From assembly GCF_964204645.1 (NCBI RefSeq), contig NC_134032.1, positions 3,372,175 through 3,436,174 on the forward strand: a stretch of DNA of 64,000 nt. Reading direction: 5' to 3'. Below, piece by piece: positions 1 to 21,374 of the stretch (positions within the stretch are counted from its first letter, which is position 1; every line of letters starts with the position of its first letter). This stretch comes from Tubulanus polymorphus. Taxonomy: Eukaryota > Animalia > Nemertea. The notes under the pieces are model-generated. The model was not told the DNA's origin and made no database searches. It was given only the letters and a program-made list of their open reading frames with translations. The translations under genes and the position numbers were made by a program.

Positions 1-1317
1 GGTTGGGCAATGATGGAACCACAACCTTATGGAGTATTTGAATTAACTGAAGTTTTACAGAATGAAAATAATGATAAATTTGATTGGAAGAAAAGAATCC
101 TAGATATTGCAGATGATTCAGATACTGGTTACTTCTTTGTTGTAGATTTAGAATATCCTGAACATATTAAATTTAAATCTAGAAATCTAGCTTACTGTCC
201 AGAACATAAAACTGTAACTCATGAAGAATTATCAAATTACCAAAAAAGAATTAAACCCGAAAATCATATTCATACAGAAAAGTTAATGGTAACTCAAGAA
301 GATAAATATAATTATGTAGTACATTATAGAATGTTAAAATTCTATTTGAATCAAGGAATGATTCTAAAAAAAGTACATAGATATATTTCATTTAGTCAAT
401 CTAAGCGGTTAGAAAAATATATAGATTTTAACACCAAACAGATAACTGAAGCTAAAACTGATTTCGAGAAAGATTTCTTCAAGTTAATGAATAATGCATT
501 CTATGGTAAGACTTGTGAAAATATTAGAAATAGAAATGATATTGAGTTAGTAAGTAATGGCAAAAGGATAAGGTATTTACAAACATATCCTAAATTTATA
601 GGTAACAGAATATTTGATGAAAATTTAGCCGCAGTTAAAATGAGAAGAACATCAATGAAATTTAATAAACCAATCTATGTTGGCACTTCAGTTTTAGAAT
701 TATCAAAATTACTAATGTATGAATTCTATTATAATGTATTACAACCACTTTTTGGAGAAAAACATATAGAAATATTATATTTTGATACAGATTCTTACAT
801 ATTAAAGATAAAAACTGATAACATAACAGATGATTTAAAAACATTAAAACATCATTTTGATTTTAGTAATTATCCTAAAGATCATGACTTGTTTAGCAAT
901 GATAATAAAAAAGTTCCAGGGAAGTTTAAGGATGAATTAGGTGGTGAAGAAATGATAGAGTTTATCTGTATTAGATCTAAAATGTATTCATATAAAACTA
1001 AAGAACATGAAGCTAAAAAGTTAAAAGGAATAACCAAAAATGTAGTAGAAAAGAATATTCATTTCAAAGATTACATCAATTATATATTCAATGAAGAAGT
1101 TAGAAAACATAAGATGAGATGTTTAAGATCTGAGTACCACGAAATGTTTATTGAAGAAATTGAAAAGGTTAGTTTGAATCCATTTGATGATAAAAGATAT
1201 ATTTTAGATGATGGAATTCATACAGTTGCTTATGGTTGCAATTTAGATGAATACTTAAAATTTAAAAGAGAAGAAACAAAAGAGAACGAGATAATGAAAA
1301 GAATTCTAACGTGTTAA
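1..1317 (+). CDS. polB: Protein-primed family B DNA polymerase (pPolB), C-terminal part, intein-free allele
   Basis: Frame is open from base 1 (GWAMMEPQPYG, the end of motif A). Motifs KLMNNAFYGKT (motif B), KPIYVG, LYFDTDS (motif C), GKFKDE, RSKMYSY, KLKG, FDDKRY. Confidence 0.96.
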   Translation, partial: GWAMMEPQPYGVFELTEVLQNENNDKFDWKKRILDIADDSDTGYFFVVDLEYPEHIKFKSRNLAYCPEHKTVTHEELSNYQKRIKPENHIHTEKLMVTQEDKYNYVVHYRMLKFYLNQGMILKKVHRYISFSQSKRLEKYIDFNTKQITEAKTDFEKDFFKLMNNAFYGKTCENIRNRNDIELVSNGKRIRYLQTYPKFIGNRIFDENLAAVKMRRTSMKFNKPIYVGTSVLELSKLLMYEFYYNVLQPLFGEKHIEILYFDTDSYILKIKTDNITDDLKTLKHHFDFSNYPKDHDLFSNDNKKVPGKFKDELGGEEMIEFICIRSKMYSYKTKEHEAKKLKGITKNVVEKNIHFKDYINYIFNEEVRKHKMRCLRSEYHEMFIEEIEKVSLNPFDDKRYILDDGIHTVAYGCNLDEYLKFKREETKENEIMKRILTC

Positions 1318-1346
1318 TCAAATTTTAATAAAAATATGTTATTAAA

Positions 1347-1700
1347 ATGGAGAGTAAACAAGCAAACAGTGAGAACAACAAATCATTTCTAGATAGAATA
1401 AAAGATACTACAAATGTAAAATCTGTAGATTATAAATTCAAAAAGTTAACAGAATTAATAATCCATAAGAAATATCTAATTACAAATATTGTTACAGTTA
1501 CTAATAACTATGGAGATAAATTAGTTATACACTTAGAATATGAAGGATTAAAAGGAAATACATATAAATTCAGAACATATTTACCGGATAGATTTCATAG
1601 ATTATCAAGTGAAGATTTAGAAGAATTATGTTCTGGAGATTTCTATTTCGTATACAAAGGTAAGAATGAAAAGGGGCACCATGAAATAGATTTCGAATGA
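1347..1700 (+). CDS. Conserved small Polinton protein (KKL..YG.K..FLP..Y.GKN..GHH), possibly an OB-fold/ssDNA-binding protein
   Basis: Intact ORF, clearly homologous to 22719..23045(-) and 14516..14842(+). The fold is an inference. Confidence 0.7.
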   Translation: MESKQANSENNKSFLDRIKDTTNVKSVDYKFKKLTELIIHKKYLITNIVTVTNNYGDKLVIHLEYEGLKGNTYKFRTYLPDRFHRLSSEDLEELCSGDFYFVYKGKNEKGHHEIDFE

Positions 1701-1717
1701 GAAAATATGTAAAATAA

Positions 1718-2473
1718 ATGGTAGAATTAAAAGAATACAGAATATTTGTTGATTCAAGAAAACTTACTAATTATAAATCTCATAATTTACTAATACAATT
1801 AGATAGAGAATTCAAGAATTGTGTAGATTTAAAATTAGTTAATATAAGTTTATGTAATTCTTTTCATAATATATCGAATAAAAGTCTTGATCATTTAGCT
1901 TTTAAAATTTATGATAGAAATTTGAATAAATGGTTTCATCTTTATCTAAAACCAGGATTATATAATTTAGAATCATTAGCGCAAGAAATTAATAAAAGAG
2001 CTCGTTTAAAAATGGGCTCAGCTGCTCGATTTGAAATTAAATTCAGCAAAAGTGATAGTTCGAATAAAATAAGAATAAAGTTAACTAATGAACAACATAG
2101 ATTTCTAGTAAGAAAACCTTTAGCTAAACTGTTTGGAATTCTTCCGGATAGACATTATTCAAATATTGATACTTATACAAATATAATACCTTTTACACAC
2201 TTTTATATTTATTGCAATTTAATCGAGCCTACAAAAACTTTCGAAGCAACTAAAGATACAATTTGTAATTCTAGTATATTAAATATTTTACCATTAAAAA
2301 ATGTTAAACAATTTGGAACGCAAATAAATTATAATTTAGCCGAATGTGATTTCAAACCTTGTATTCCACATTTTAATAATTTTGGATTAGAAATTAGAAA
2401 TCATAATGGATACTTAATTGATTTGAATAACTTTCCTGTAATTTATGAATTAGTTATAAGATGTAAAGAGTAA
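1718..2473 (+). CDS. Putative minor capsid protein (penton, single jelly-roll)
   Basis: N-terminal IFVDSR, PGLYN, YIYCNLI, and C-terminal LEIRNHNGYLIDLNN..YELVI, a pattern typical of Polinton/virophage-like pentons. Confidence 0.75.
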   Translation: MVELKEYRIFVDSRKLTNYKSHNLLIQLDREFKNCVDLKLVNISLCNSFHNISNKSLDHLAFKIYDRNLNKWFHLYLKPGLYNLESLAQEINKRARLKMGSAARFEIKFSKSDSSNKIRIKLTNEQHRFLVRKPLAKLFGILPDRHYSNIDTYTNIIPFTHFYIYCNLIEPTKTFEATKDTICNSSILNILPLKNVKQFGTQINYNLAECDFKPCIPHFNNFGLEIRNHNGYLIDLNNFPVIYELVIRCKE

Positions 2474-2489
2474 TTTTTCACCTATATAA

Positions 2490-2846
2490 ATGAATATAAC
2501 TGTTGGACCGAGTATCTGTTTTGGGTTTGATTTTAAACGTGAGAAAGAAATGAAATTTAACGTTAATGATGTAATTACACACATCAAAAATATTACATTT
2601 TCTAATGAAACAACATTTGAGTATGAAACAACAATAGATAAAGAAACTGAAAATGTAGAAAAGATTACTAATTTAATTCGAGAATCTTTAAGATTTTATG
2701 AATTAGATGAAGATTTTATCATCGATGATATTAAAAAAATGATAATTGAAATATATACAAATGAAACTAGTCATGAAATAAATGTTGAATTAATCATCAC
2801 TAAGATAACTAAATATTTTGATGATAGTAATTTTTTTGATAAATAA
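2490..2846 (+). CDS. Polinton hypothetical acidic protein
   Basis: Intact ORF with TAAATG start; decayed paralog at 9208..9558. Confidence 0.65.
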   Translation: MNITVGPSICFGFDFKREKEMKFNVNDVITHIKNITFSNETTFEYETTIDKETENVEKITNLIRESLRFYELDEDFIIDDIKKMIIEIYTNETSHEINVELIITKITKYFDDSNFFDK

Positions 2847-3068
2847 ATGAGTGATAATAAGTGGATAATAACTGGATTATATAATGGAGCATTACTATCA
2901 GTTGGAACTGTTGGTTATTCAATGGTATTAAAAGAAGTATTTAAAATGGGAAGTGTTGATGTTGATAGATTTGATATAAATGATATTTTAAAATTAACAT
3001 TAGCAGTTACTTTATCTAATTTAACTATTGATTATTTGGAAAAACAAAAATATATTCCTCCCATATAA
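2847..3068 (+). CDS. Polinton small hydrophobic/membrane protein
   Basis: Intact ORF; second intact copy at 9562..9789. Confidence 0.7.
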   Translation: MSDNKWIITGLYNGALLSVGTVGYSMVLKEVFKMGSVDVDRFDINDILKLTLAVTLSNLTIDYLEKQKYIPPI

Positions 3069-3092
3069 ATGCATAATTTTTTTGCTAAATAA

Positions 3093-3515
3093 ATGGCTTC
3101 TGCAATTATAACTATTATAGGATCAGCAATTGTTAACGCTTTAGCATTTACTGGTGGTGGATATTTATTTAAACATATTGATAAAAATAGTTCATTAGGA
3201 GAACAAAGAAGACATAACTTAGCATTAGAGAAATATAATAAAGCTGCGGAAGAATATAGAGAAAAGAGGCAAAACTATATGGATTATATTAACAAAGAAT
3301 TATATGATCAGAAGATTTCACATAGAGATTTTCAATCAGTTGATGATGCAATGAGTTTATATAACGCGGTAACCAATAAAGAAAAATTACATCTATACAA
3401 ACCTAAATTATCAGATTATTATACCCCAAGTAATGAACAGAAGAAATATGAAATAATATGGATTTTAGGTGGAACTGTTATTGTTATATTTGTAGCATAT
3501 AAATTTACTAATTAG
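3093..3515 (+). CDS. Polinton conserved protein with N-terminal hydrophobic helix, coiled coil and C-terminal TM
   Basis: MASAIITIIGSAIVNALAFTGG..EQRRHNLALEK; decayed copy at 9806..10229. Confidence 0.72.
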   Translation: MASAIITIIGSAIVNALAFTGGGYLFKHIDKNSSLGEQRRHNLALEKYNKAAEEYREKRQNYMDYINKELYDQKISHRDFQSVDDAMSLYNAVTNKEKLHLYKPKLSDYYTPSNEQKKYEIIWILGGTVIVIFVAYKFTN

Positions 3516-3535
3516 TAATTTTTTTTGCTAAATAA

Positions 3536-3970
3536 ATGGAAGATAAAGTTGATAGTATTGATATTATTCCTCATGATATAAATAAAACTAAATTAAAAAC
3601 ATATTTAGAAAAACAAATATTAGAATTTGAAAGTGACTTAAAAGTTAAAAAGAAAATATATCTAAAAAGTAAAATTATATATTATTTGATTATAAGTGGT
3701 TCGGTTACAATTAGTTCTGTAATAACATTTCTAGCCATATTTTCACCATTAACACCTTTGGCTATATCAATTGGTGTGTTAGGATTAAGTTCAAGTGTTT
3801 TAACTGGTATAAGTTCAAAATTGAATATAAAAAGTAATAAAGAAAAAATTAAAACTAATATAAAAGAAATTAATAAATTAAAGAATACACTAGATTATAT
3901 AATAAGTTTAAATGGTCATATAACAGTTGAAGAACAAGATAAATTATTAAAAGAATTAATAAATTATTAA
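3536..3970 (+). CDS. Polinton 2-TM protein with coiled coils
   Basis: Two hydrophobic segments; paralogs at 10248-10425(+) and 17310-17738(-). Confidence 0.7.
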   Translation: MEDKVDSIDIIPHDINKTKLKTYLEKQILEFESDLKVKKKIYLKSKIIYYLIISGSVTISSVITFLAIFSPLTPLAISIGVLGLSSSVLTGISSKLNIKSNKEKIKTNIKEINKLKNTLDYIISLNGHITVEEQDKLLKELINY

Positions 3971-3986
3971 TCTTTTAATTATATAA

Positions 3987-5375
3987 ATGGTAGATAGTTT
4001 TCCAAAAGCTTTCAAATATAATAAATCAATTAAATATAATATTCCAGCAATAGATTTTAATAAAGATATTACATATAGAAATAAAGTTTTAGATTCATTA
4101 ACTAATTTAGAAATTTATGTTACTGAAACTAATAATTTTAATGCAAAGATGGAAAATATATTTCATGTATATTTAATTAATTTTTAAAAATTGAAAGATG
4201 AAAAACAATGGTTATTAAAATCTAATATGAAGTATTGGCAGAATCAATTAAATTTTGCTGTTTATTGTTCAACAACAGGTTGTGGAATTAGTTGGAATGA
4301 TCATTTGAATAATTCTTAATATAAATTAATTCAAAGTTTATTTAGATTTCATACATACTTTCAAATAAGAATAATATTAAATGAATTAGAGTGCGCTTTA
4401 CCAGGATCTAGGTATTTTAAAGAATTAGATAATGATATTAATTTATCGAAGTTTTATAAAATTTGCAATGAATTTAATATAGATATAAATAATTCTGATT
4501 TTAGAACAAAAATTGGAACAATAAGATCACTTCCTTGCCCTGAAAATGTTGCAGCATATTGTGCACTTCCCATACCATCTAATAGTTTTTATAATATCTA
4601 TAATAATAAATTAGGTTATGGTAAAATAGAAACAAAGGATTTAGAAACATTAAATTTCAATAAATTACCGAAATTTTATGATAATTTAAAACAAGAAAAC
4701 AATAATGGTTGGGTTTATTTTATTTTAGAAAATAGTGAAGGTTTTACTAAATCAGGTATAGAAAGAATAAATCAATCTATTAGAACTTATTTGATATGTA
4801 TTTTAGGTGCACAAGTTGAAACAAGATCACCGATAATTGGAAATTTGAATACATCATTCGATGCGCAGAAACAGTTTAAAGTTTTATTTGAAGATTCAAT
4901 TCATAATGATAAAAATAGATCGATTCCAGAAAACATTATAAGATATCAAAATTATTTAGATAAATCTCATGTAAGACTTAATTATTGTATAGGCCCTAAT
5001 CTATTAATTATTTCTAATGATTTAGTATTAAAGATGGGAAATATAATTGGTTATAATAATCTAATTAAAACTGCAACAATAAATAATTCATTTGGATTGA
5101 ATGATATAAATAAAAAGATTATTACTGCTCCAAAATTAATGGAAGGTGAAAAAAATAGAAAACATATTCAATCAACAGAAACTAAAACTAAGAATATTAG
5201 ATTGCATAATGATTCTAAAATAAAAGATTATAATACATCAGAAAATAATAGAACTGATATTATTCAACATGATATAATTAAACTAAATGATGATAATAAA
5301 TCCCATGAAAATACTAAATTAGCTATAACTTGTATAGGAATTGTAATCGGAGGAATATTAAATTTTAAATTTTAA
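3987..5375 (+). pseudogene. Polinton conserved protein (WQNQLNFAVYC.TTGCG motif) with C-terminal TM, disrupted by stops
   Basis: ORFs 3987..4187 and 4791..5375 lie in one frame separated by premature stops; the minus copy 16945-17289 reads through the first stop. Confidence 0.75.
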
Positions 5376-5391
5376 TTTTCTTATTATGTAA

Positions 5392-6031
5392 ATGGATGTA
5401 GAAGGTGGAGAAGATATTGGAATTGATAATTTAGATGAACCTGGTATAAGTGATGAACAACCACCTGATTTTAGTGAAACAAGTTTTAATGATGATAATA
5501 AGCCAGAATATAATACTAATTTAGGTGATGATTATGATGATGATTATGATGATGATCCCGAAATACGTGAAAAATAAATAAATATTTAAAAGCTCCTGAA
5601 ATTGGTAGAATTTCAACTAGAAGAGAAAGAGAAGAATTTATGAAACTATTAGTAAAACAACAAGAAAAATATCCTGATAAACCTATGGAATTATATAAAA
5701 TGAAATCTAGAGTAACAGATACAATTGTTAACGAATTATTACCAAAAGTTGTAATAGATGAAATTAATACTGAAGATGTTGTAGAACAAATTTTTAAAGA
5801 TGACCCATATTTCACGAATAATTTAGAATTTAAAAATGATTCATGGTATTATAATGTTGAATTAAATAACAAAACTGCATCAATACAATTATCTAAAATG
5901 GGTCAAGAAAATATTTTTGAACCTGAAATGCGAGCAATATCTACAATTGAAGGTTCAAAAGGTGGTAGAGAATTTCTCAGAATTATATGGAATGCACTCG
6001 ATAGAATAAATAAAGAAGAACCAATTCCTAA
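5392..6031 (+). pseudogene. Polinton acidic protein, frameshifted and truncated by fusion to copy 2
   Basis: ORFs 5392..5577 and 5640..; sequence switches abruptly to pPolB at ~6032. Confidence 0.6.
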
Positions 6032-7500
6032 TATGTTTTACAACCACTTTTCGGGGAAAAACGTATTGAAATATTATATTTTGATTCTGTAACAGCTGAC
6101 ACCCCAATATTATTAAAATATAATGATAAAATATTGATAAGAAGACTTTCAGAAATAATTCCAAAACAAAATAAACTTAATATTTCGTATGGTGAAAAAG
6201 AATTGATACAGATAAATGGATTAATGGGTGTTTGGACAAGAAATGGATGGAAAAAGTTGAAGAATATAATTAGACATTAAACAAATAAATTGACAAGAAA
6301 ATTGATAGAGATATAACTAAATTAGGACATGTAGATGTTACTGAAGATCATAGTTTAATTAAACGAAATGGTGATGAAATAAAACCAACTGATACAAAAA
6401 TTGGAGATGAATTATTACATAAAACATTTTTTTCCAAGAATGAATCATATGTCATTTGATGAAATAATTAATAATATTTATAGCATAGAACCAGAAAAAT
6501 TAGAAGAAAAGGAATATTTTATCAAAGGATTTTTTATGGGAGATGGTTCAACAGGTGTGTATAATTATGTTGGTGGCAATAAATATTGTTGGTATTTATG
6601 CAATCAAGATTTGAAATTATTAGAAAGAATACAGAAATTCTGTGAAAAAGTTTATTCGTCACATAAAACATTTAGAATCGTGGACCATATGAAATCATCA
6701 GCAGTTTATAGAATAATCGTGAAAAACCACAAACATATTGCTACAAAATATAATGATGAATTCTATATTCATGCAATAGTGAAAAGTAATACTTCAACAG
6801 AAGAAAATAAGTGCCAGATTATGTATTAAATGCAAAATATAATCTAAGAAAATGGTTCTTCATTGGATTCTATGCTGCAGATGGGCAGAAGAAATATACG
6901 AGATATCCAGTAATAACATTTGCGCAAAAAGGAAAAGTTGCTATATCAGGATTGTATATATAATGTAATTCATTAGGATTTTATATGAATATTGAATTAA
7001 TTAAATACAAACCAAATTGTTTTATTTTAAGGGTTTTTGGGTTCCCATTCATCCAAAAAATACGGACGCCTACATACTAAAAATCAAGACAAATGACATA
7101 ACAAAAACTTAAAAACATTAAGACATCATTTTGATTTTAGCAATTATCCAAAAGATCATGAATTATTTAGCAATGATAATAAGAAATTTCCTGGTACATT
7201 TAAAGATGAATTAGGGGGTGATGAAATGATTGAATTTGTTGGGATAAGAAGTAAAATGTATAGTTATAGAACAAAAGATCATGAAGTAAAAGGAATAACA
7301 AAGCATGTGGTTGATAAACATAGAGAATTTCAAGATTATATAAAGTGTTTATATAATTCAATTGTAATGAAACATAAAATGAATTGTTTAAGATCAGAAG
7401 ATCACGAGATGTACATTAATGAAGGTGAGAAAACTAGCTTAATTCGACGATAAAAGATATATTTTGGATGATGGAATAAAAACATTACCTTATGGTCATC
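6032..7500 (+). pseudogene. polB: pPolB pseudogene containing an intein
   Basis: VLQPLFGEKRIEILYFD (6035-6085), then an insertion, then TDAYILKIKT...HHFDFSNYPKDH...RSKMYSY...KRYILDDG, matching ORF 10..1317. Confidence 0.93.
6086..7061 (+). mobile_element. Intein with LAGLIDADG homing endonuclease in PolB motif C (decayed)
   Basis: Block A SVTADTPILLK right after YFD; VWTRNGWKKLKNIIRH; block B VDVTEDHSL (TEDH 6340-6351); endonuclease motifs KGFFMGDGS (~6524-6550) and VPDYVLN..IGFYAADG (~6862-6885); ends KN then +1 Thr (ACG 7062). Contains stops and frameshifts; block F is missing. Confidence 0.92.
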
Positions 7501-8365
7501 AAAACATAAAATCAATATCATCATACTCGAAATCACAACTGGTTTCTCCATATTCATCAAATTGTTTTCCAATAATTTCTTTAGATTCTACTATTTCAGT
7601 TTTCTCATTTAAATAAAAATCTATGTTACTCCACATTTCCTCTCGCTCTTTTTGTTTCTTTTTGTTTGTTAATTCATCAAATGGAATTATAATAGTTTGA
7701 AAAATTGACAATTTTTTCTATCAAATCTTTGTAATGGATATACATTAAGTTCTTTGTATTTTCTTACGTTTTCTTCATGTTTTATTGTTTTATTATTTGG
7801 ATTTGAATTACTTTTTGTAATAATCAATTTACAATATTTACAATAATATGGTTTTCTTACTAATTCATCATATGGTTTTTCTAACTTTCAAGTGTTTCTT
7901 TATTATCCGGTAACGTTTTCTCATATTTTTTTTCTAATATATTATTTTTTTCTTTCATTGATATCTGTTTCAAATTTATTAGAAATTTTATCTATATGTG
8001 CTTTACGAAATTGATGATTCTCCCAATCTTCTATATTTTCAGGGCTATATTTTATTTGACAATGCCCACAGAAATGATCTATTATATTATTCTTATCATA
8101 GAATAATAAAGGTCTTTTCCAAATAATTTCAGGTTCAACTTCAACAGAATTGATATTACTTTCGTAACTATCAACATTAACTGCTGGTCATTAATTTTAC
8201 ACTTCTCTGAATGTTTTTTGACATAATTTCTTGAGAATAATTTATTACAATTTGGGCAGTTTATTGTAGGGGGTTTATAATTTTTATCACGTTTTTTCAT
8301 ATGTCGAGCCATATTACTTTTTCTTTGAAGTTCACCACATATTTCACATTCTATCTTCTCATCTA
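7499..8365 (-). pseudogene. Zinc-finger-containing Polinton accessory gene(s), decayed
   Basis: CEICGELQRKSNMARH, CPNCNKLFSRNYVKKHSEKC, FCGHCQ in broken frames. Confidence 0.55.
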
Positions 8366-8434
8366 TTTATTTAGGAAAAATTTTGTTGAAATTAATTTTT
8401 AGTGGTTCGAAGTAATTTTATTATGTTATAAATA

Positions 8435-9191
8435 ATGGTTGAATTAAAAGAATATAGAATATTTGTTGATTCCAGAAAACTCACAAATTGAAAATCATAT
8501 AATTTACTAGTAAAATTAGATAGAGAATTTAAGAATTGTGTTGATTTAAAATTAGTAAATGTAAGTTTATATAATTCTTTTTACAATATATCGGATAAAA
8601 GTTTTGATCATAGAGCCATTTAGTTTTTATCAAAAATAAAATAAATGGGTTCATCTTATTCTAACGCCAGGATTGTATAATTTAGAAACATTAGCGCAAG
8701 CAATTAATAGAAAAGCTCGGTTGAATTTAGGTAGTGATGCTGGATTTAATATTAAATTTTTTTAAGTGAAAGTTCTGATAAAATTAAAATAAAGTTTGAT
8801 AATGAAAATAAATATGCTTTCGGGGTAAAAATACCTATAGCTAAACTGGGAATTACGCCAGATATTATTATTTTAGGAAACTACGTAAAAGGTAGTTCAA
8901 ATATAATACCTTTCACACATTTTTATATTTATTGCAATTTAATTGATCCTTCAAAAACATTCGAAGCAACTAAAGATACAATTTGTAATTCTAGTATATT
9001 AAATATTTTACCGCTTAAAATGTTAAACAATTTGGAACACAAATAAATTATAATTTAGCTGAATGTGATTTCAAACCTTGTATTCCGCAATTTAATAATT
9101 TTAGATTAGAAGTAAGAAATCATAATGGATACTTAATTGATTTAAATAATTTTTCTGTAATTTATTAATTAGTTTTAGATGTAGAGAGTAA
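8435..9191 (+). pseudogene. Minor capsid (penton) pseudogene, copy 2
   Basis: Nucleotide homology to 1718..2473 with frameshifts and stops. Confidence 0.85.
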
Positions 9192-9207
9192 TTTTTTCAC
9201 TACATAA

Positions 9208-10425
9208 ATGAATATAACAGTAGGACCGAGTATATGTTTTGGTTTTGATTTTAAACAGGAGAAAGAAATGAAATTTAACATTAACGATGTAATAACACGT
9301 ATTAAAAATATCGCATTTTTAATGAAACAACATTTGATTATGAAACAACAATAGATAAAGAAATTTATAATGTAGAAAAAGGTTCTGGTTTAATAAGAGA
9401 ATCTTTAAGATTTTATGAATTAGATGTCGATTTTCTTATCGATGATATTAAGAAAATAATAACTGAAATATATAAAAATGAAACTAATAATATTATCGAT
9501 GTTGAAATAATTATAACTAAGATAACTAAATATTTTGAAGATAGTAATTTTTGATTAATAAATGAGTGATAATAAGTGGATAATAACTGGTTTATATAAT
9601 GGAGCATTATTATCAGTTGGAACTGTTGGTTATACAATGATATTAAAAAAAGTATTTAAAATGGGAAGTGTTAATGTTGATAGATTTGATATCAATGATA
9701 TTTTAAAATTAACATTAGCAGTTACTTTATCTAATTTAACTATTGATTATTTGGAAAAACAAAAATATATTTCTCCTATTGACGGGTAATTTTTTTGCTA
9801 AATAAATGGCATCTGCAATTATAACTATTATAGGATCGGAAATTGTTAACGCTTAAGCATTTACAGGTGGTGGTTATTTATTTAAGCATATTGATAAAAA
9901 TAGTTCATTAGCAGAACAATGAAGACATAACTTAGCATTAGAGAAATATAATAAAGCTTCAGAAGAATATTGAGAAAAGAGACAAAATTATATGGATTAT
10001 ATTAATAAAGAATTATATTATCACAAAATTTCACTTAGAGATTTTCAATCAGTCGATGATGCAATGAGTTCATATAACGCAGTAACAAATAAAGAAAAAA
10101 CTACATCTATATAAACCTAAATGATCAGATTATTATACCCCAAGTAAAGAACAACAACAATATGAAATAATTTGGATTTTAGATGGAGCAGTTATAGTTA
10201 TGTTTGTAGCATATAAATTGACTAATTAGTAATTTTTTGTTAAATAAATGGATGATAAAGTTGATAATATTGATATTATTCCTCATGATAAAAATAAATA
10301 TAACTAAATTAAAAATATATTTGGAAAAACAAATATTAGAATTTGAAAATGACTTAAAAGTTAAAAAGAAAAAATATTTAAAAAGTAAAATTATATATTA
10401 TTTTATTATAAGTGGTCCAGTTACC
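9208..10425 (+). pseudogene. Copy-2 versions of the genes at 2490, 2847 (9562..9789 still open), 3093 and 3536 (truncated)
   Basis: Direct nucleotide homology to 2490-3715. Confidence 0.85.
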
Positions 10426-10632
10426 TTTTTTAAATTTTTAAATTTTTAATTTTATATCCTTAAATACTAATTTTTAAATAAATGGCACACATTGATATTT
10501 ATGACAGCAACACTATTGTGAATTAGCTGACTTAAAATGGTTGAAATTCTACAGAAGAGAATTCAATTTAGTATACATTGATATACCAAACAGCCTAAAC
10601 TTACGACACAGTAGTGCATATAGCTCTTTTAT

Positions 10633-10930
10633 CCTGGACCTACTGGTAGCCTTAACCTACTGGTAGCCTGAACGTACTGGTAGCCTGAACCTACTGGTAG
10701 CCTGAACCTGCTGGTAGCCTGAACCTGCTGGTAGCTTGAACCTACTGGTATCCTGAACCTACTGGTAGTCTGAACCTGGTGGCCTGAACCTACTGGTATC
10801 CTGAACGTACTGGTAGCCTGAACGTACTGGTATCCTGAACCTACTGGTAGCCTGAAGCTGGTTGCCTGAACCTACTGGTAGCCTGAACCAACTGGTAGCC
10901 TGAAGCTGGTGACCTGAACTTACTGGTAAC
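10633..10930 (+). repeat. Minisatellite, ~17-bp unit CCTGAACCTACTGGTAG
   Basis: Directly visible tandem array with some shortened units. Confidence 0.9.
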
Positions 10931-10952
10931 AACCTACAGGTAGGCTCGCGAA

Positions 10953-11004
10953 ATGGAGATACATTTCAACGATAGAAAAGCACTCGTTACAGGTGCGGGT
11001 AAGG
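10953..11004 (+). pseudogene. Orphan first exon of a DCXR/L-xylulose reductase-like short-chain dehydrogenase
   Basis: MEIHFNDRKALVTGAGK-G|GTAAGT (start of the Rossmann TGxxxG motif, phase-1 donor). Only the first bases of exon 2 follow. Confidence 0.65.
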
Positions 11005-11034
11005 GTAAGTATAGTTTATATATTAAAACCACTT

Positions 11035-11285
11035 AACGGGGCAGTATTTCAATGTATCCGTAATTCTAGTTAGTCCCACTAGGGGGCGGTTTATGTATTT
11101 TAGTTAGTCCATTGACAGGTATAGGTCCCGCTAAGGGGCGGTTTATGTATTCTAGTTAGTCTACTTACAGGTATAGTTCCTGCTTGGGGGGCGTTATATA
11201 TATTCTAGTTTCTATTGACAGGAATAGGTCCGCTAGGGGGCGGTGTATGTTTTCTAATTTGTCCATTTACAGGTATAGGTCCCGC
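11035..11285 (+). repeat. ~55-bp tandem repeat containing a splice acceptor and exon-2 start (ACAG|GTATAGGTCC)
   Basis: Units GGGGCGGTTTATGTATTCTAGTTAGTCC..ACAGGTATAGGTCCCGC, 4-5 copies. Confidence 0.75.
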
Positions 11286-11368
11286 CAAATAACAATATCA
11301 TGCTAACAACCTATATCAATGTGTCTTCATTCGGCGTTTCCTTCGAAAACCGATCAGCCAGTCATCTT

Positions 11369-11452
11369 GGACCCAGCTCCACAGCTGTGAGTAAGAGTTA
11401 ACTCTGAGTTAAAATAAAAGAGTAAAATCTTAACTCGGAGACATTGGAACCC
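11369..11452. mobile_element. Palindromic MITE fragment, same family as 23160-23269
   Basis: GGACCCAG.TCCACAG.TGTGAGT..GAGTTAACTCTGAGTT..TCTTAACTCGGA shared with the 23160 copy. Confidence 0.6.
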
Positions 11453-11608
11453 CGAGGGTCCCGGACTCAGTTGCGCAAGTCGATACTTCAGAGAGACTGA
11501 GAGAGGGGTGTTACTACAGAGTCAGATTACAGGGTGCTGAGAGAGCTAGAGAGAGAGAGAGGTTTGTGTTACTGCAGAGTCACTGATTACAGGTCTCTGA
11601 GCTTCAAC

Positions 11609-12688
11609 ATGAATTTTACCACGATCTCTACGACTACTCCGCAGTGTATGAGCCGGTATCCACCAGAACGATGGGATCACGTTTTCAGCTATAAGATTTA
11701 CTTGTACGGATATTTGCCGGCTTCGGCTTTCGGAATGATTCTGAACTCTGTTTCTATTCTGGTATTCACAAAGATCGGTCGCGACACTTATCAAACTATA
11801 ATCATTCTCGCCTGGTTTGATTTACTGTTCCTATTTTCAGTGTTTCTTCTTTATCCACTGCGGATACTAATTATCCATTCAATACAAAATGAATACGTTC
11901 TCGGCCGCTGGGATGACTGGTATTTTGGACACGAGATTATAATTTGGGTTCTACCGCTGTTTTATACGTTTCAAATGGCAAAAAATTGGGCCGTAGTTAT
12001 AATCAGTTTTGAAAGACTTCTGGTTGTCGCGAGTCCGCTGTATTTCAGGCGATTCTGGAACAAAAAACAAATCATTTTTCTGTCGGTTTTAAATGCCTTT
12101 TTTTCCGCCGTTTGTTACTGGCCGTATTATTTTCCACTATACTTACCCGGAAGGACCACAGATCCCTGTTTTGGTCATTTATTTACTATGGGAGCTTTTG
12201 GTGCCAAAACAAGTCAAACAACTTTTGTTTATGGGTCTGACATTGCATTCAACTACGTATCTAATTCCTATATTTTCATGTCTGTTCTTTCACCTTTTAT
12301 TTTTCTGATTGTGATAAATCTAACTTTGTTCGGAATTATGTTATTTAGAAAACTAAATCGAAAGAAACAATGTCACACGGGCGCAGCGGCGCCTGGTGAA
12401 AAATCTACCGAACTCAAAATATTAAAATTGGTTCTTATAATTGTAGCTATATTTTTTACCTGTGAAATTCCCGCATCGCTGGATCGTATGTTGCATTTCG
12501 TCAGTAGGGGGTTGAGATTACCTCACGGTCTTCCCGAGGATGAATTGATGATCATGCGTAAAGTAGGAATTCTGCTCAGTGTTTTAGACTCATCCGTAAA
12601 TTTCTTCGTTTACTGCGCAACAAACGGCGCCTTTAGAAAAAAAGCTAAACGAATTTTATTGATAGATTATTTTTGTGATTCTAAATAG
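11609..12688 (+). CDS. Class A (rhodopsin-like) GPCR, FMRFamide/neuropeptide-receptor-like, single exon
   Basis: Seven hydrophobic segments; N-glycosylation site NFT; LAWFD (TM2), SFERLLVVASPL (TM3), FFTCEIP (TM6), SSVNFFVYC (TM7), helix 8 FRK. Likely ATG at 11609. Confidence 0.9.
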   Translation: MNFTTISTTTPQCMSRYPPERWDHVFSYKIYLYGYLPASAFGMILNSVSILVFTKIGRDTYQTIIILAWFDLLFLFSVFLLYPLRILIIHSIQNEYVLGRWDDWYFGHEIIIWVLPLFYTFQMAKNWAVVIISFERLLVVASPLYFRRFWNKKQIIFLSVLNAFFSAVCYWPYYFPLYLPGRTTDPCFGHLFTMGAFGAKTSQTTFVYGSDIAFNYVSNSYIFMSVLSPFIFLIVINLTLFGIMLFRKLNRKKQCHTGAAAPGEKSTELKILKLVLIIVAIFFTCEIPASLDRMLHFVSRGLRLPHGLPEDELMIMRKVGILLSVLDSSVNFFVYCATNGAFRKKAKRILLIDYFCDSK

Positions 12689-13382
12689 AAAAGAAAACGG
12701 GGTGCACAGCCAAGACTTAAGTCCAAAAGTGAAGAACGTGGTCTAAGTAGTTTTTTATGAGTGGCTAATTCGAGTGTTAAACCGGTCCCTTTATTGATAC
12801 ACCGGTGCTATGGTATTTGGGGTGTAAAAATCTTTATGTAACAAAACCTATCTTGAAGTTATAAACAATATGATATGGGGTCCAGTATATATCCAATATA
12901 TTTCATATATATATATATATTTCATATACATATTTCATATACATATTGATGGCTGACTGCATTACACCGAACGCGTGCTCCCTCTCAAACCTGTCCAATG
13001 ATTGGCCGGCGACTACATGTGTAACGTCTTGGACACGACATGGGTTTTCAAACTGCTGTTGCTGCTGCTGCTGCTGTTTGGAATTATTTGAAGGGTATTT
13101 TGACCGGTGATGAAATAAATACTTTCATTTAAGATGAGACCCCTCCCCTCCCCCATGAAGTAAAAGGCAAACTTATTTTTGGGCCCGAAGTACACCTAGC
13201 GCGGACTTCTCCCGGGTTACATTTCTAAAAGGTGTTTCAAAAATGTTTAAATCAACTGTTAATCTAAACGGTGATGGGTACGTATGACGTCATTACTGCC
13301 GGGTTCACTTTGGATTTACATAAAACTAAAAAAAAATTCACGCAAATCATTTTCGTTTGGATGAACACGCAACACGAAATTT

Positions 13383-13633: not shown

Positions 13634-14515
13634 CTTTCAACAGGGCATGATAAAGGAAAAAAGTGAAGAGATAGTCAGGTAGGACAATTTTACGGGAGCC
13701 AGTTCCACAGATAGTTACAAATAGTTATAGATAGTTGCAGATAATGATTGATAGTTATTACTTGGACATTGCACGACTCAATGATCGCATGTTCATTTAG
13801 ATTTTATAAAATACATGTGGTCAAAATCAGTTGATTTTCAATGAAATTTGAACCTGATCTAATTTCAACTATCAGTGGAACTGAGTCGAGGAGTTCAGGT
13901 CACAGGCCTCCCTTACAGATACCCCTTGCAACCCTATGGCCCGATGGACAGTGCCCATGGATGGAGCCCAATAACTCATCATTTGAATGTATTTTTGCTT
14001 GTGATAAAATCAATGTTTTTGACGGGTAAAACATAATTTTCAATATTTTGTGAAAGATTTAATTTTCACAGAATATCTACGATATCAATTTTGACGCATC
14101 AAATAAATACCGTTACGTAGTTTAAACAATATCTACAATAGTAAACTTGGTTTTGAAAGTGTATCGAAGATCAGATTTGACGCATCAAAAACGTTAGAGG
14201 AACATTTTGTATGAAGAGTGAACATGCAATGTGTAATTCTCTTCTGGACAGAGAAAAAGATCGATTTCATCGGGAATAGGCCCATTTGAACATCTCAAAT
14301 ATTTCAGCGGAAACAATGCTATACCAAATTTCTAGTGAAAATATCGGCGAATATACCTTATTGACTTCTTTCAAACTATAACATCATCACATTTACTTAT
14401 GTCCTGAAAGGCGAATTCACTGACGGCCGGAGTAATTGGTAAATCAGGGTTTCATAGCAGAGGTCGTGCGGTCGACACACCACTCATCACCACAAGTAAT
14501 TTTCCCCCGTAATAA

Positions 14516-14842
14516 ATGGGAGATAGAAAAGCATTCTAAGCAACAATAAATAACAGAATAAAACCAACAAAAAAACAATTTGAAATAAAAAGGTTAGTCG
14601 ATGTTACAAAAGAAATTGAACACAAAATATTAAAATTAGAAAAGATAAGAACTAAATATGGAGAGAAAGTAACAGCAAATTTAAGTTACTGTAATGTCAG
14701 TACAACGCGAGAATTTAAAGTATTTTTACCTGATAAATGGTTTGCATTGAGTACAGAGGAATTAAAAGATTTAGAAGGATTTAAAATAATTTACCATGGG
14801 ATAAATGAAGACGGGCATCATGATTTAGAAGTTGTTGACTAA
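14516..14842 (+). pseudogene. Paralog of 22719..23045 (small KKL/YG/FLP protein) with an early stop
   Basis: MGDRKAF*ATINNRIKP..TKYGEKV..FKVFLPDKW..GHHDLEVVD. Confidence 0.8.
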
Positions 14843-15280
14843 ATAATTAAGAAATAAAAAAATAAAAAAATGAAAATCAAGAATCCGAATGGACAATTCA
14901 ATTGCTCCGCAAGATAGACAAAAGTAGTGAGATATTCAATTAATTAAAATAAATTTTTTTTTGCTTTTTTTCTAAAATATTAATCCATTTTTTTATTGTG
15001 AATTTTGGAATTTCAGAATTTTTTTCATTTTTAATAGCACTAGTTTCAGAATTATTAAAATCATAAATTTTATTTGATTTCTTATACCAACTACACCCAA
15101 TCAAAATGAATACAATTACAAATCCAGTTGCAAAATATAGATATTTATCAAATATTCTATTATTAGACGGATTAGAAATAACAATATTTTCACCATTTTA
15201 ATTAACATTTTTATTACTTATTTTTTTTCTTTTACAGCTTTTTATATTCCTGTGATTTAATTTCTAATTGCCGAGAGCAT

Positions 15281-15872
15281 TCAATTTGTTTCTGAGTTCT
15301 CGGTTTTTTCTTCACAGTTAATTCTTTCACCTCTTCCACTTCTCTCATTTATTCTAGAAAAATTTTTACTTTCAATATTTGAAAATGTTATAACTCCAGT
15401 TGTTAATAGCGTCATAAATCCATCTAATTGAAATGATAAATATCCAATCCATTTATTTAATTCGGTCATAACTAAATAATCATTTTTTAAATCGGAATAT
15501 AATCTATTTTCAATAATTACATAATTTACTATAACCTTTTACTACATTTTCTGATATCGCATCATTAATTCTAGCTATTCTCGCAGTTTCATAAATCTTA
15601 AATAATTTAATAATTTCATCTGATTTCATTGTATCTAATTCATTATAAGTTAAATTTTTACTAATAAAACTTTTACATTTTCCAGATGCTATTATCATTT
15701 CTAATTGATGTTTGCAATAAAGATAATATTCATAATTATTGTTTGTAGTAATATCATTTAAAGCACCATTATTATCTGACGCTAATTTTGTTTCTGCTAT
15801 ACCTAAATCATCCAAAGTTTTTTCAATTGGAACATCACTACTTTTAGATTTTATTTTCTTTTCACCTCCCAT
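15281..15872 (-). pseudogene. Polinton hypothetical protein, paralog of 20772-21374
   Basis: ORFs 15510..15872 and 15281..15469 match 21009..21374. Confidence 0.75.
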
Positions 15873-16094
15873 TTATATAAGAAACAAATTACTTGTGTTG
15901 TTGCAACTAGAATTCAACTACAATTTAACTAGAATGTAACTAAAAATATACTAGATTAACAAGCTATTTGAAATATTGTTGTTTTTATTCATTTTGTGTT
16001 GAATTTTATTAGATTTTTGTTTCAACTACCAATAACTAGAATTCAACTAGAATGTAACTAAAAATATACTAGATTAACAAGTTAGTTGAGTTTA

Positions 16095-16701
16095 AATAAA
16101 TTCATATTTAAATGGGGGTTGTAATCGAAATAGAAATTTTTATCTTTAATTATTTTTCAATTTATCCATATATTCATTATGTAAATCATTTGGAATTATA
16201 TCATTTTCCTCAAGTGCATTTTTCATTGATTTTCTATCTTTATTGTTGAATAATACTATAAATCTAGTGTTTTCTCTAAAATCTTTAACAATTGAATTAT
16301 ATTTTTGATTTAAAACCCATGTTGTTATCCCAAAATGTCTCCCAGAGAAAAATAAAATAACATAACTCACTCTCTCTAACTTTTGAAGCATGTAAATTAG
16401 CACAATCATCTATAATGAATAATGTATTTGATCCTTTATAAATATAAATTGCTATTTTGATACAATAATCTAAATTTTCTTTAACTGTTTTAGGATTTAA
16501 TACAATAAATTTATCATTTCTAGTTATATTTCTATCATAAGTTTGATTAAATTCATACGTTGGACAAAATAATACTATATTATCAAAATAGTTTTTATAA
16601 ATAGTTTCTAATAAATTTGATATAAAATAAGTTTTTCCACAATTTGTTACACCAGAAATAAACATATTATGAGGCTCAAATATAAATAATTCCTTATTCA
16701 T
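16095..16701 (-). pseudogene. Genome-packaging ATPase (A32/FtsK-like), frameshifted
   Basis: Walker A SGVTNCGKT, Walker B LFIIDD, SGRHFGIT..LNQKY..RENTR. Confidence 0.88.
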
Positions 16702-17309
16702 TTATATTTTTTAAATTTACTTGATAATATCCATTCATTAAATTTATCTAGCCATCCAACCCATTTTACTAAATCTTCTAATTTATAGACATATGGTTTT
16801 GTTGTCATTACCTTTTTTATTTTATACATTTCTCTAGTAAAATTACGATCCTATCCTTTATCAAATATCTTTTTATGGTGGTTCCAAAAAAGTGCTTCCC
16901 GAGGCGTGATCTCCGCCACGACCCGGTGCAGTGAGGGAGGGAGGAATTAATTTATATTTAGAATTATTAAAATGTTCATTCCAACTAACTCCACATCCTG
17001 TTGTTGCACAATAAACAGCAAAATTTAATTGGTTCTGCCAATACTTCATATTAGATTTTAATAACCATTGTTTTTCATCTTTCAATTTTTTTAAATTAAT
17101 TGAATATACATGAAATATATTTTCCATCTTTGCATTAAAATTATTAGTTTCAGTAACATAAATATCTAAATTAATTAATGAATTTAAAACTTCATTTCTA
17201 TATGAAATATTTTTATTAAAATCTATTGCAGGAATATTATATTTAATTGATTTATTATATTGAAAAGCTTTTGGAAAACTATCTACCATTTATATAATAA
17301 AACAATTAA

Positions 17310-17738
17310 TAATTTATTAATTCTTTTTATAATTTATCCTGTTCTTCAACTGTTATATTACCATCTAAACTTATTATATAATCTAATGTATTTTTTAATT
17401 TATTAATTTCTATTATATTTATTTTTTTCATTATTACTTTTTATTACTTTAATTTTGAACTTGTGCCGGTTAAATACACTTGAACTTAAACCTAAAGCTC
17501 CAATTGAGATAGCTAAAGGTGTTAATGGTGAGAATAACGCAATAAATGTTATTACAGTACTTATTGTAACTGAACCACTAATAATAAAATAATATATAAT
17601 TTTACTTTTTAAATATTTTTTCTTTTTTATCTTTAAATCACTTTCAAATCCTAATATTTGTTTTTCCAAATATAATTTTAATTTAGTTTTATTAATATTA
17701 TGAGGAATAATATCAATATTGTGAACTTTATCAACCAT
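17310..17738 (-). pseudogene. Paralog of the 3536..3970 2-TM gene
   Basis: MVDKVHNIDIIPH..SKIIYYFIISGSVTIS; frameshifted near the 3' end. Confidence 0.8.
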
Positions 17739-17799
17739 TTAATTAGAAAATAAATTACTAATTAGTAAATTTATAAGCAACAAATAATACAATAACTGA

Positions 17800-18700
17800 A
17801 ATAATATGATATTTCAAGGCATTCAATCGGAAAACCATAATAAATTAAGATCAGGAGCTAATGACGCAATAGTAACTCGTGCCTACAGATAATTTGATTG
17901 AAAAGATTTATGGAAGCAAATATAAAATTCCATTAGACTTTGAATTGATAAATAATAATGCACCTTTATATAAATATGTAATTCAAGAAGATATTATATT
18001 TGAGATAAAATTTGCTCCTGTAAATGGAATTGTATTATCTAGCGTTGTTAAAGATATGGGTTATAAATTATCGAATATATGTATAGAATATGACACAGTA
18101 ACTAATGAAAATATTGCTAGCACAATTCAAACTCAATACAATCAAGGATTTTCATTATTATATGATTATATTGATAAATTTAAAACTGTAACTATTAATG
18201 CAAATGATGAAATAATTAATGAGAACATTAACTTCCCAAGAAGATCTATTAAAGGTATATTAATATTTTTTTACCATTGCAACATATTCTAATGGCGCAA
18301 TAAAGGTTGATAATTATTATAATCCTGAAATAACAAAAGTAGAAATAACTATCGAAGGAATAGCAAATAAAATATTTTGTCAAGGAATGAGAATGATAGA
18401 TCAGTGGCCAGAAATTGGAAAACATTTTATGAATGAAAAAGTAAAATCATTTGAAAATTGTAATATTAATCAAATTGTTTATTATACCGGCAATAAATAC
18501 GCACTATGGTTAGATTTTAGAACAACAGAGGATAATTCATTACATGGTTCTGGGAAAAAACTACAAAATACAAAAGATGGAATACAATTATTCATGACAA
18601 AGAAAAGAGGAGACAAAAATTTCAAAATGCACATTTATGTTATATCTGACGCACAATTAAATATTGTAAATTCACAATTAGATAGTATTCAATATTATAA
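17800..18700 (+). pseudogene. Major capsid protein (double jelly-roll, hexon-like), C-terminal part, frameshifted
   Basis: YKIPLDF, NENINFPRRSIKGILIFF, FYNPEITKVEITIEG, YALWLDFRT.EDNSLHGSG, DGIQL motifs. Confidence 0.82.
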
Positions 18701-18728
18701 ATATAAAGTTAAAATTAAGGATATATAA

Positions 18729-19855
18729 ATGGGTGGTAAAAAAACTCCTAATACTAAAGAACAATATTTAAGAAATTTATATTACAACCCTGAGAGTTCG
18801 GTTGCTTATTCTACTACCAAAAATATATGGCGTCAAATAAAACAAGATAAATTAGATAAGATAATCCCACAAAATTTAGTTAAATATAAAGATATAAATG
18901 AATTTATGTTAGAACAATCAACATATACAACACATAAAAAATTGTTAGAAAATATAAAACTCGTAAAACTATGGCAAGTTATGTAGGTCAACAGTGGCAA
19001 GGAGATTTAATTGATATGAAAAATGTTAAGAAAGATAATGATGATTATTGGTGGATATTGAATATGATTGATATTTTTAGTCGTTATGTATGGAGCTTCC
19101 CACTTTATAGAAAAGATGCTGTACAAAAATCAAATGTTTTAAGAAAATTTCTTTCGGATGATAAACTAAAACCAGAAAAAATACAGTTTGATGATGGAAA
19201 AGAATTTGATAATTCACTTGTTCATGAGCTCTTAGATAATCATTATATTAAATATTTTTCAACAAAATCGGATAAAAAAGCAGCAGTTGTTGAACGATTT
19301 AATAGAACATTAAGAACAAGAATGTGGAAATATTTTACAGCAAATAATACTTTTAAATGGATTGATGTTTTACCAAAATTGATAGAAGGATACAATAATT
19401 CTTATCATTCTTCTATTGGAATGAAACCTATTGATGCTAGAAAACCTGAAAATGCTGAAATTGTTTGGAAAAATTTATACGGAGCATTTCTTGTAGATGA
19501 TTTTGGTGAACCTAAATTTAAAGTTGGTCAAAATATTAGAATTTCTAAGTTTAAAAAGATATTTGATAAAGGATACGATCGAAATTTTACTAGAGAAATA
19601 TATAAAATAAAAAAGGTAATAACAACAAAACCATATGTCTATAAATTAGAAGATTTAGATGGTGAAGAAGTTGATGGCTACTTTTACGAAGAAGAATTAA
19701 GATTAACTACAGAAAATCGAGAACAAGAATATAAAATTGAAAAAGTATTAAAAACAAAAACTATTAAAAGAAAAAAATATTCTTTAGTAAAATGGGTTGG
19801 ATGGCCAGATAAATTCAATGAATGGATATTATCAAGTAAAATTAAAAATATATAA
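18729..19855 (+). pseudogene. Retroviral-type (rve) integrase with C-terminal chromodomain; one frameshift near 18950
   Basis: LYYNPES, WQGDLIDM, IDIFSRY, QFDDGKEF, VERFNRT, YNNSYHSSIGMKP; chromodomain YKIEKVL..LVKWVGWPDKFNEWI. Confidence 0.93.
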
Positions 19856-20465
19856 ATGAATAAGGAATTATTTATATTTGAGCCTCATAATATGTTAATT
19901 TCTGGCGTAACAAATTGTGGAAAAACTTATTTTATATTAAATTTATTATAAACTGTTTATAAAAAGTAATTTTGATAATATAGTATTATTTTGTCCACTA
20001 TATGAATTTAATCAAACTTATGATAGAAAAATTACTAGAAATAATAAATTTATTATATTAGATCCTAAAACAGTAAAAGAAAATTTAGATAATTGTATTA
20101 AAATAGCAATAGATATTTATAAAGGATCAAATACATTATTCATTATAGATTATTGTGCAAATTTACATGATTCAAAAATTAGAGAGAGTGAGTTATGTTA
20201 TTTAGCTTTTTCTGGCAGACATTTTGGGATAACAACTTGGGTTTTAAATCAAAAATTTAATTCAATTGTTAAAGACTTCAGAGAAAACATTAGATTTCTA
20301 GTTTTATTCTACAATAAAGATAGAAAATCGATGAAAAATGCACTTGAGGAAAATGATATTATTCCACATGATTTACATAATGAATATATGGATAAGTTGA
20401 AAAATAATAAAAGATCAAAATTACTATTTAGATTACAACACCTATTTAAATATGAATTTATTTAA
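19856..20465 (+). pseudogene. Packaging ATPase pseudogene
   Basis: SGVTNCGKT Walker A; homologous to 16095-16701; stops and frameshift. Confidence 0.88.
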
Positions 20466-20469
20466 ATTC

Positions 20470-20750
20470 AACTGGCTTGTTAATCTAGTTGAATTCTAGT
20501 AACATTCTAGTTGAATTCTAGTTATTGGTATTTGAAACAAAAATCAAATAAAATTCAACAATATTTTAACTAGCTTGTTAATCTAGTATATTTTTAGTTA
20601 CATTCTAGTTGAATTCTAGTTATTAGTAGTTGAAACAAAAATCAAATAAAATTCAACAAGAAATAAATAAAAACAACAATATTTCAGCTAGCTTCTTAAT
20701 CTAGTTGAATTCTAGTTACATTCTAGTTAAATTCTAGTTGCAACATCACA
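20470..20750. repeat. Intergenic repeats rich in TTCTAGTTGAATTCTAG / CTTGTTAATCTAG
   Basis: Three degenerate units; inverted copy at ~15890-16090; related motif at 52260-52330. Confidence 0.7.
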
Positions 20751-20771
20751 ACTAATTTTTTTGTTATATAA

Positions 20772-21374
20772 ATGAGAGGTGAAAAGAAAATAAAATCTAA
20801 AAATGGTGATGTTCCAATTGAAAAAACTTTAGATGAACTTTAGACAGAAAACAAATTAATTCCAGATGATGGTGCTTTAAATAATGTTACAACAAATAAT
20901 AATTATGAATATTATCTTTATTGTAAACATCAATTAGAAATATTAATAGCATCTGGAAAATGTAAAAATTTTATCGGTAAAAATTTAACTTAAAATGAAT
21001 TAGATACAATGAAATCAGATGAAATTATTAGATTATTTAAGATTTATGAAACCGCGAGAACCGCTAGAATTAATGACGCGATATCAGAAAATGTAGTAGA
21101 AGGTTATAGTAAATTATGTAATTATATACTACCAATTGAAGATGAAAATAGATTATATTCCGATTTAAAAAATGATTATTTAGTTATGACTGAATTAAAT
21201 AAATGGATTGGATATTTATCATTTCAATTAGGTGGATTTATGACATTATTATCAACTGGGGTTATAACATTTTCAAATATTGAAAGTAAAAATATTTCTA
21301 TAATAAATGAACAAGGTGGAAGAAGTGAAGGAATTAACAGTGAAGAAAAAACCGAGAACTCAGAAACAAATTGA
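20772..21374 (+). pseudogene. Polinton hypothetical protein with premature stops
   Basis: Homologous to 15281-15872(-). Confidence 0.75.

Follow-up and report, generated by a model that had tools for sequence, protein, structure and literature searches.

The window analysed here, a stretch of 64,000 nucleotides, contains nested and duplicated pieces of Polintons over its first 23 kb. Several components by which these elements are recognized are present in it, namely a protein-primed DNA polymerase (pPolB), an RVE integrase, a packaging ATPase, and jelly-roll capsid leads (Table 1), and no adenain-type protease was found among the 48 ORFs scanned against Pfam. Copy 1 of the polymerase, at the window start, has no Pfam match itself and has 5264 homologues at E ≤ 1e-10, some of them with PF03175. 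This copy had been described in an earlier note on this DNA as an intact pPolB; it is indeed intein-less, with an empty site in motif C (YFD/TDSY, the slash marking here and below the point of insertion), but the gene runs off the window start and only 438 aa of it are visible. In copy 2, only 53 nt of polymerase are left upstream of the insertion, 48 of which are like copy 1 before the likeness stops, which makes this copy a truncated piece belonging to a related Polinton subfamily. The gene block downstream of the polymerase is directly duplicated (1712-3708 and 8430-10424, 87%), which indicates that two related Polinton subfamilies became fused near 6030. The intein-bearing element is a truncated piece, and the inverted repeats detected correspond to duplicated gene blocks. 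At 14431-23130, a big imperfect palindrome mirrors the blocks of the ATPase and its neighbours about the capsid and integrase genes, with 87-96% identity.

The host marker of the region is an intronless GPCR gene, whose ORF has a weak PDB match to a peptide GPCR (E 1e-3). Just upstream of it, at 11369-11415, lies a high-copy repeat at which thousands of loose-ended reads accumulate. The GPCR region is followed by a PAN-domain ORF, the remains of LTR and GIY-YIG retroelements, and a decayed group-2 pPolB (46147-49059, minus strand), which is of higher GC, has an empty motif C (YMD/TDL), and is kin to the intein-bearing protein P0139 described below. Taken together, the GPCR neighbour and the Polinton setting make an animal the likely host of the window's intein, on evidence that is strong but indirect.

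Table 1. Features of the window, with their positions and the observations that identify them.
Feature	Position	Strand	Observation
Intein-less pPolB (copy 1), sister subfamily	1..1317	+	Open at window start; empty site 786/787
Probable Polinton virion protein, putatively penton-like	1718..2473	+	Atlas 0.98, unnamed Nucleocytoviricota/Preplasmiviricota clusters; second copy ~8430-9100
N-extein remnant (..EILYFD)	6033..6085	+	Short; polymerase gene cut off upstream
Broken pol-c-site intein (Hint + two-motif LAGLIDADG homing endonuclease), 976 nt	6086..7061	+	Between Asp and Thr of pPolB motif C
Hint N-terminal region with block A (Ser1)	6086..6277	+	39/64 residues identical to the intact P0012 intein
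Hint block B (VDVTEDHSL, TxxH)	6298..6420	+	Second frame; 30/41 identical to P0012
LAGLIDADG endonuclease	6434..7029	+	Motifs GFFMGDG and GFYAADG; breaks near 6809 and at 6961
Block G remnant and terminal Asn codon	7039..7061	+	Preceded by loss of block F
C-extein, Thr+1 through polymerase C-terminal motif	7062..7499	+	Frameshifted; 74% nt identity to copy 1
Rhodopsin-family GPCR gene, intronless, host marker	11501..12688	+	7TM_GPCR_Srsx above cut-off; 7tm_1 E 1.5e-5, below cut-off
A32-type packaging ATPase	16297..16701	-	PF04665 E 7e-7
Double-jelly-roll major capsid protein, frameshifted	17876..18728	+	Atlas 0.94-0.97 including Capsid_N and DJR clusters; recognition value below threshold
RVE integrase with chromodomain	18938..19855	+	PF00665 E 4e-9; PF00385 E 2e-4
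A32-type packaging ATPase, second copy	19941-20465	+	PF04665 (Pox_A32) E 7e-5

What sets copy 2 apart is the insertion that interrupts its motif C. In an alignment of the two copies, the Asp codon has its last base at position 786 (copy 1) or 6085 (copy 2), and the Thr codon begins directly after it in copy 1, at 787, but only at 7062 in copy 2, so that the insert lies exactly between YFD and TD, as the earlier note had claimed. For this site we use the name pol-c and for the intein blocks the usual letters, both of which we take to be the established designations. The sequence motifs quoted in that note are all found in the insert, which comprises SVTADTPILLK, VWTRNGWKKLKNIIRH, VDVTEDHSL, the two LAGLIDADG-like motifs GFFMGDG and GFYAADG, and a terminal Asn codon (7059-7061) followed by Thr+1. 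A profile built from 56 non-Polinton pol-c inteins matches the insert in two frames (i-E 3.9e-34 and 2.2e-30), values that rule out a chance resemblance to inteins, and when run against the window's six frames it gives nothing above 0 bits outside the insert. The comparison with general Hint and LAGLIDADG profiles, which had also been suggested, turned out differently, since the pieces of the window intein alone reach no Pfam or NCBIfam cut-off (TIGR01445 intein_Nterm, E 0.008; LAGLIDADG_3 against the endonuclease, E 0.005). By its exact D/T site and the profile match, the insert is a pol-c-site intein that carries a LAGLIDADG endonuclease and resides in the pPolB of a Polinton.

The window copy is a dead intein within a 5'-truncated polymerase fragment, as had been proposed. 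It contains in-frame stops at 6278, around 6808, and at 6961, and the frame changes near 6290, 6427, and 6809, as well as close to the 3' end. Some 33-36 codons are missing after 7029, and with them block F. The earlier note was right about this deletion but not about its extent, which it had drawn up to the final KN: the motif GFPFI at 7039-7053, four of whose five residues are like those of P0012, is a surviving remnant of block G. Because this remnant is present, the idea that the deletion arose through an AAAAAT microhomology fails.

Intact relatives, for which a search had been advised, do exist as full-length pPolB proteins in the databases. Copy 1 has 5264 longer homologues, and the best 120 of these include a single carrier, P0012 (1693 aa), which has a 354-aa intein at the same site that is 61% identical to the window pieces over 282 columns. 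Used as a query, this intein gives 3185 matches, the best 120 of which add the pPolB carriers P0124, P0139, P0142, and P0143; nearly all the others in that best 120 are RNA-primed PolBs with YGD/S inteins. Among the matches and cluster members listed, at least 12 full-length pPolB proteins with an intein are found, in five clusters. A search with the junction gave 186 matches at E ≤ 0.001, and the 150 listed include several decayed P0124-type fragments, P0294, which is 76% identical to the window's junction and has continuous polymerase upstream, and P0316, whose host is apparently yet another pPolB type. The 82-aa junction gave no match in a word-index search. In scans of viral, metagenome, and prokaryote contigs, the only Polinton intein locus was L086, an additional but broken one, and no intact element with flanks was seen; two Polinton-specific DNA patterns had no match in viral contigs, and a search of phages gave none either. 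Far from being a one-off fossil, the window copy belongs to an intein clade with intact members in other Polintons and a patchy distribution among divergent pPolB lineages, a point missing from the earlier note. One Polinton-type pPolB, P0117, is labelled Sulfurimonas in UniRef and is probably mis-binned.

The residues and blocks associated with splicing are well kept in this clade. As is typical of class 1 inteins, Ser1 and Thr+1 are present in the window copy and in all five intact representatives, and the frame is broken in the window copy and L086 only. All eight Polinton inteins that were aligned retain blocks A, B, C, E, and H, and all but the window's also retain F and G; the intact relatives also have the TxxH motif, the block F Asp, and the terminal Asn. 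The penultimate residue is His in five of seven, and Ser and Lys in one each, the exceptions being P0012 and P0139. Both LAGLIDADG motifs are found in all eight; the acidic residues of the two helices and the block D Lys are present, and between lineages the endonuclease (40-58% identity) is about as conserved as the Hint part (41-68%). Among four intact proteins, one reaches the Pfam cut-off for Intein_splicing and all reach that for PF14528 (LAGLIDADG_3), and with TIGR01445, P0124 scores above the cut-off and P0012 and P0139 just below. The AlphaFold model of the P0012 intein (pLDDT 91.5) consists of Hint and LAGLIDADG parts, and Foldseek aligns it to the TliVMA, PhoVMA, PI-PkoII, PI-PfuI, and PI-SceI inteins with E 2e-17 (TliVMA) to 7e-11; in the viral structure library, it comes closest to the PolB inteins of a phycodnavirus, pandoraviruses, and marseilleviruses. 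PI-PkoII was also recovered from the PDB sequences by a profile search (E 1e-17).

In the phylogenetic analysis, the inteins of pPolBs are monophyletic, both in a quick mixture tree (8 of 78 rows, SH-aLRT 100) and in an LG+G4 tree whose outgroup comprises 19 archaeal inteins (6 of 58 rows, 95/91). The latter was computed on thinned rows, from which alternate viral rows, close duplicates, inteins of other sites, and two long branches had been removed; viral rows are termed giant-virus from their GVMAG/IMG-VR labels and Pfam PF00136. A 99/99 branch separates the viral and Polinton inteins (39 rows) from the 19 archaeal rows, which rules out an archaeal source. This tree of viral and archaeal inteins, which the earlier note had called for, together with the viral structural matches bears out the assignment to the PolB intein family of large DNA viruses. 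The pPolB inteins fall inside the viral set in the quick mixture tree, and the LG+G4 tree places them, with weak support (48/94), as the sister group of the entire viral set. On a 49-row polymerase tree, intein presence takes six changes, and 137 of 500 shuffles are as low, so there is no extra clustering; monophyly of the six group-1 intein-bearing polymerases, P0139 being left out, is rejected (p-AU 2e-8). P0139 itself is a group-2 pPolB whose exteins are 23-24% identical to those of the other carriers and whose intein is 42-49% identical to theirs. An intein far more alike than its exteins points to acquisition by a horizontal jump between Polinton groups, even though nesting of the P0139 intein inside the group-1 inteins is not significant (p-AU 0.38).

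The cluster of P0124 allows a direct comparison between filled and empty sites. Of its 136 members, the 15 listed come from separate contigs, which are 57 kb to 1 Mb long: seven are full-length and filled, six span the empty site, and two stop short. The seven filled copies and four full-length empty ones are 97-98% identical, and their ten fixed differences, among 1193 columns at the protein level, all lie between -6 and +44 of the site. The empty copies of this cluster vary among themselves at the site as well (YFD/TDAM, YTD/CDSM, and YGD/TDAM). Across 120 empty polymerases, the heptamer of the site takes eight, six, and seven forms in the three intein-hosting groups (32, 11, and 18 rows), whereas in the outgroup, whose mean pairwise identity of 61% is no higher, it is xTDTDSL in 59/59 rows. 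After thinning at 90%, six to seven forms remain per intein-hosting group against xTDTDSL in 32/32 outgroup rows, and in a comparison of 17 conserved windows, the site exceeds all the others in variability in two groups, and all but one in the third. These counts are at the protein level, over rows that are not phylogenetically independent, and may reflect few events. The fixed differences near the site and the variability of the site itself fit what would be expected from co-conversion plus escape from cutting, judging from the sequences, and a single recombination event could also be the source of the fixed differences. In the P0124-like group, the catalytic motif, usually DTD, reads DCD in 18 of the 32 empty pPolBs.

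The stretch is represented in three runs of one study (X1-X3). A second study provides a run of raw reads under the same species label, and these reads were placed on window positions 1-12800 at 90% likeness. Their depth, which gives no copy number, is about 120x at the intein and 380-570x along the intein-less polymerase, and falls to 15-17x in the bins with the least coverage. Most of them do not have the window's breaks (105/174 near 6427, 111/119 near 6809, and 88/116 near 7102). Run X1, which may be the source sample, yields other-form contigs over the intein at a depth of about 6,000-6,900, besides the window-identical ones, and in X2 and X3 the depth ratio of other-form to window-identical contigs over the intein is about 10-25. 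The coverage in the second study and its reads without the breaks thus indicate that the intein is multi-copy in Tubulanus polymorphus and that some copies are less damaged; no intact copy was seen in this species among the short reads, which are blind to block F in those other copies. This multiplicity, and an animal-type GPCR gene next to the intein, agree with the host-genome setting that had been supposed at the outset.

From these data, we propose that the intact relatives splice themselves out of pPolB and spread by homing into empty Polinton copies, a reading to which, on sequence evidence, we give a probability of about 0.8. According to this model, the intein would be translated in frame with the polymerase, and Ser1, the Thr and His of block B, the block F Asp, the terminal Asn, and Thr+1 would bring about its excision, restoring the DTD motif. 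The endonuclease would then cut the empty motif-C site in other Polinton copies of the same cell, and repair off a filled copy would carry over the intein with some flanking sequence. A multi-copy Polinton family would represent a standing pool of empty targets and keep the endonuclease under selection, and empty copies could escape through changes in the residues around the site. The inteins may have entered Polintons once, from the PolB intein family of large DNA viruses, and later crossed between Polinton groups, with invertebrate iridoviruses as one candidate contact in animal cells. Transfer during a co-infection, as put forward in the earlier note, would be one conceivable route.

Homing would not be needed if the intein had entered an ancestral Polinton once, been inherited vertically, and been precisely lost many times, without any current homing. 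All group-1 carriers do lie within one 30-row pPolB clade (SH-aLRT 100), and the pairs formed in the intein tree by the window copy with P0012 and by P0124 with L086 mirror neighbouring polymerase clades; gain and loss are not separable by change counts, and repeated precise loss fits the patchy presence of the intein as well. Vertical descent is, however, difficult to reconcile with a group-2 pPolB that shares the intein and whose exteins are half as similar as the intein, with endonuclease motifs that are intact across lineages, and with filled and empty copies that coexist at such high identity and differ only at the site, so we regard it as unlikely. Scarcely believable is a third possibility, namely that the insert is a fused nuclease or a non-splicing Hint domain, comparable to the HNH and VSR nuclease domains known to be inserted in other pPolBs (PMC10748475). 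The insert splits the catalytic DTD motif, so that an unspliced polymerase could hardly work, all splice residues are conserved, and the P0012 model shows a complete intein fold.

A different objection concerns the host, since intein and Polinton might come from a protist, a symbiont, or a free virus, and have been joined to animal DNA by assembly or mere co-occurrence. No listed read or contig, among the short reads and contigs available, joins the intein to the GPCR gene, and the closest intact relative sits on a 13-kb metagenome contig. Against this stand the raw reads of a second study under the same species label, which cover the intein, and the window-identical contigs of X1, which occur at equal depth (54-60) on the Polinton and GPCR sides, even if this run may be the source sample. 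In addition, the Polinton pieces are decayed and nested and lie amid remnants of LTR elements, Penelope-like elements, and group-2 Polintons, as is usual in chromosomal DNA, and the nearest eukaryote-named pPolB match, among the matches listed, is from a coral (P0107). A foreign origin is thus very improbable in our judgement. The splicing and homing intein that we favour for the intact relatives can be extended to a wider reading, in which active inteins would exist in animal nuclear genomes, riding Polintons, homing within the germline, jumping between groups, and diversifying the DTD motif through an arms race; for this extension we consider the chances to be even.

The closest known systems are the inteins at YGD/TDS in the PolB (DdDP) of Nucleocytoviricota, described in Phycodnaviridae, Mimiviridae, and Iridoviridae, with invertebrate iridoviruses among the carriers of DNA polymerase inteins (PMC5784728). 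Polinton inteins share with them the site, the Ser1 and Asn/Thr+1 ends, the blocks, 37-45% identity, and the 99/99 branch. Contrary to them, they form their own clade, reside on an integrating multi-copy element, and have a protein-primed host, with YxD, ASD, or SSD before the site. Viral-type DNA polymerase inteins on nuclear scaffolds have been reported from Klebsormidium, Tetrabaena, and a labyrinthulid (PMC10710043), and here too a viral polymerase intein was endogenized in a eukaryotic nucleus. Those inteins are in viral-like polymerases, and the main text of that paper mentions neither Polintons nor animals, whereas the present case involves a pPolB, a likely animal host, many copies, and both filled and empty alleles. 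Endonucleases within Polinton polymerases are also represented by the HNH and VSR insertions, and PMC11161782 speculates that endonuclease insertions in pPolB stem from intein invasions. The HNH and VSR insertions are described, in the relevant part of PMC10748475, without a Hint domain, contrary to the window family, which has a full Hint plus LAGLIDADG at the catalytic motif C. With archaeal pol-c and the solved LAGLIDADG inteins (PI-PkoII, TliVMA, PI-PfuI, PI-SceI), the Polinton inteins share fold and domain order, and the archaeal PolB inteins found here have the same YGD/TDS site, but identity to archaeal inteins is only about 22-40% over parts and these lie on a separate branch.

According to passages in two reviews, inteins are absent from metazoan genomes (PMC5784728, PMC8529194). 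The full-text literature searched, with supplements, subscription papers, and repeat databases outside its scope, contains no Hint-containing intein in a Polinton polymerase or an animal genome, and the word "intein" has no occurrence in PMC8097293, PMC8502044, PMC10748475, PMC10120064, and PMC11131425. The supposition of a published intein in fish Mavericks is not borne out by the first of these. A viral-type pol-c intein clade in Polinton polymerases appears to be new, with no earlier report found in the literature searched. The absence of metazoan inteins is a premise of the design of intein-inhibitor drugs, to which a Polinton-borne intein would be an exception, located in a viral or transposon gene and not in a host gene. 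The clade extends pol-c inteins from RNA-primed to protein-primed polymerases. The intein would also mark contact of Polintons with large DNA viruses, and is relevant to the question of whether the Polintons of animals encounter these viruses within the cell. A multi-copy family with filled and empty alleles would be a testable system for homing and target-site escape in one eukaryotic genome.

Some minor observations concern the wider intein family. The viral PolBs P0129, P0131, P0128, P0123, P0217, and L150 carry two back-to-back inteins with only the TD of motif C between them. The same intein family is found at DQD/S or EGD/S sites in P0140, P0263, P0366, P0403, P0418, and P0301, and since P0140 bears type II topoisomerase Pfam domains, the family has reached a non-polymerase host too. 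An 80-kb viral contig (L005) encodes, at 4066-7695, a PolB with a full giant-virus-type intein, the polymerase giving the impression of being atypical for a giant virus. Two contigs in bacterial MAGs (L166 and L167), probably mis-binned, encode a giant-virus-type PolB with an intein of the Polinton-related family.
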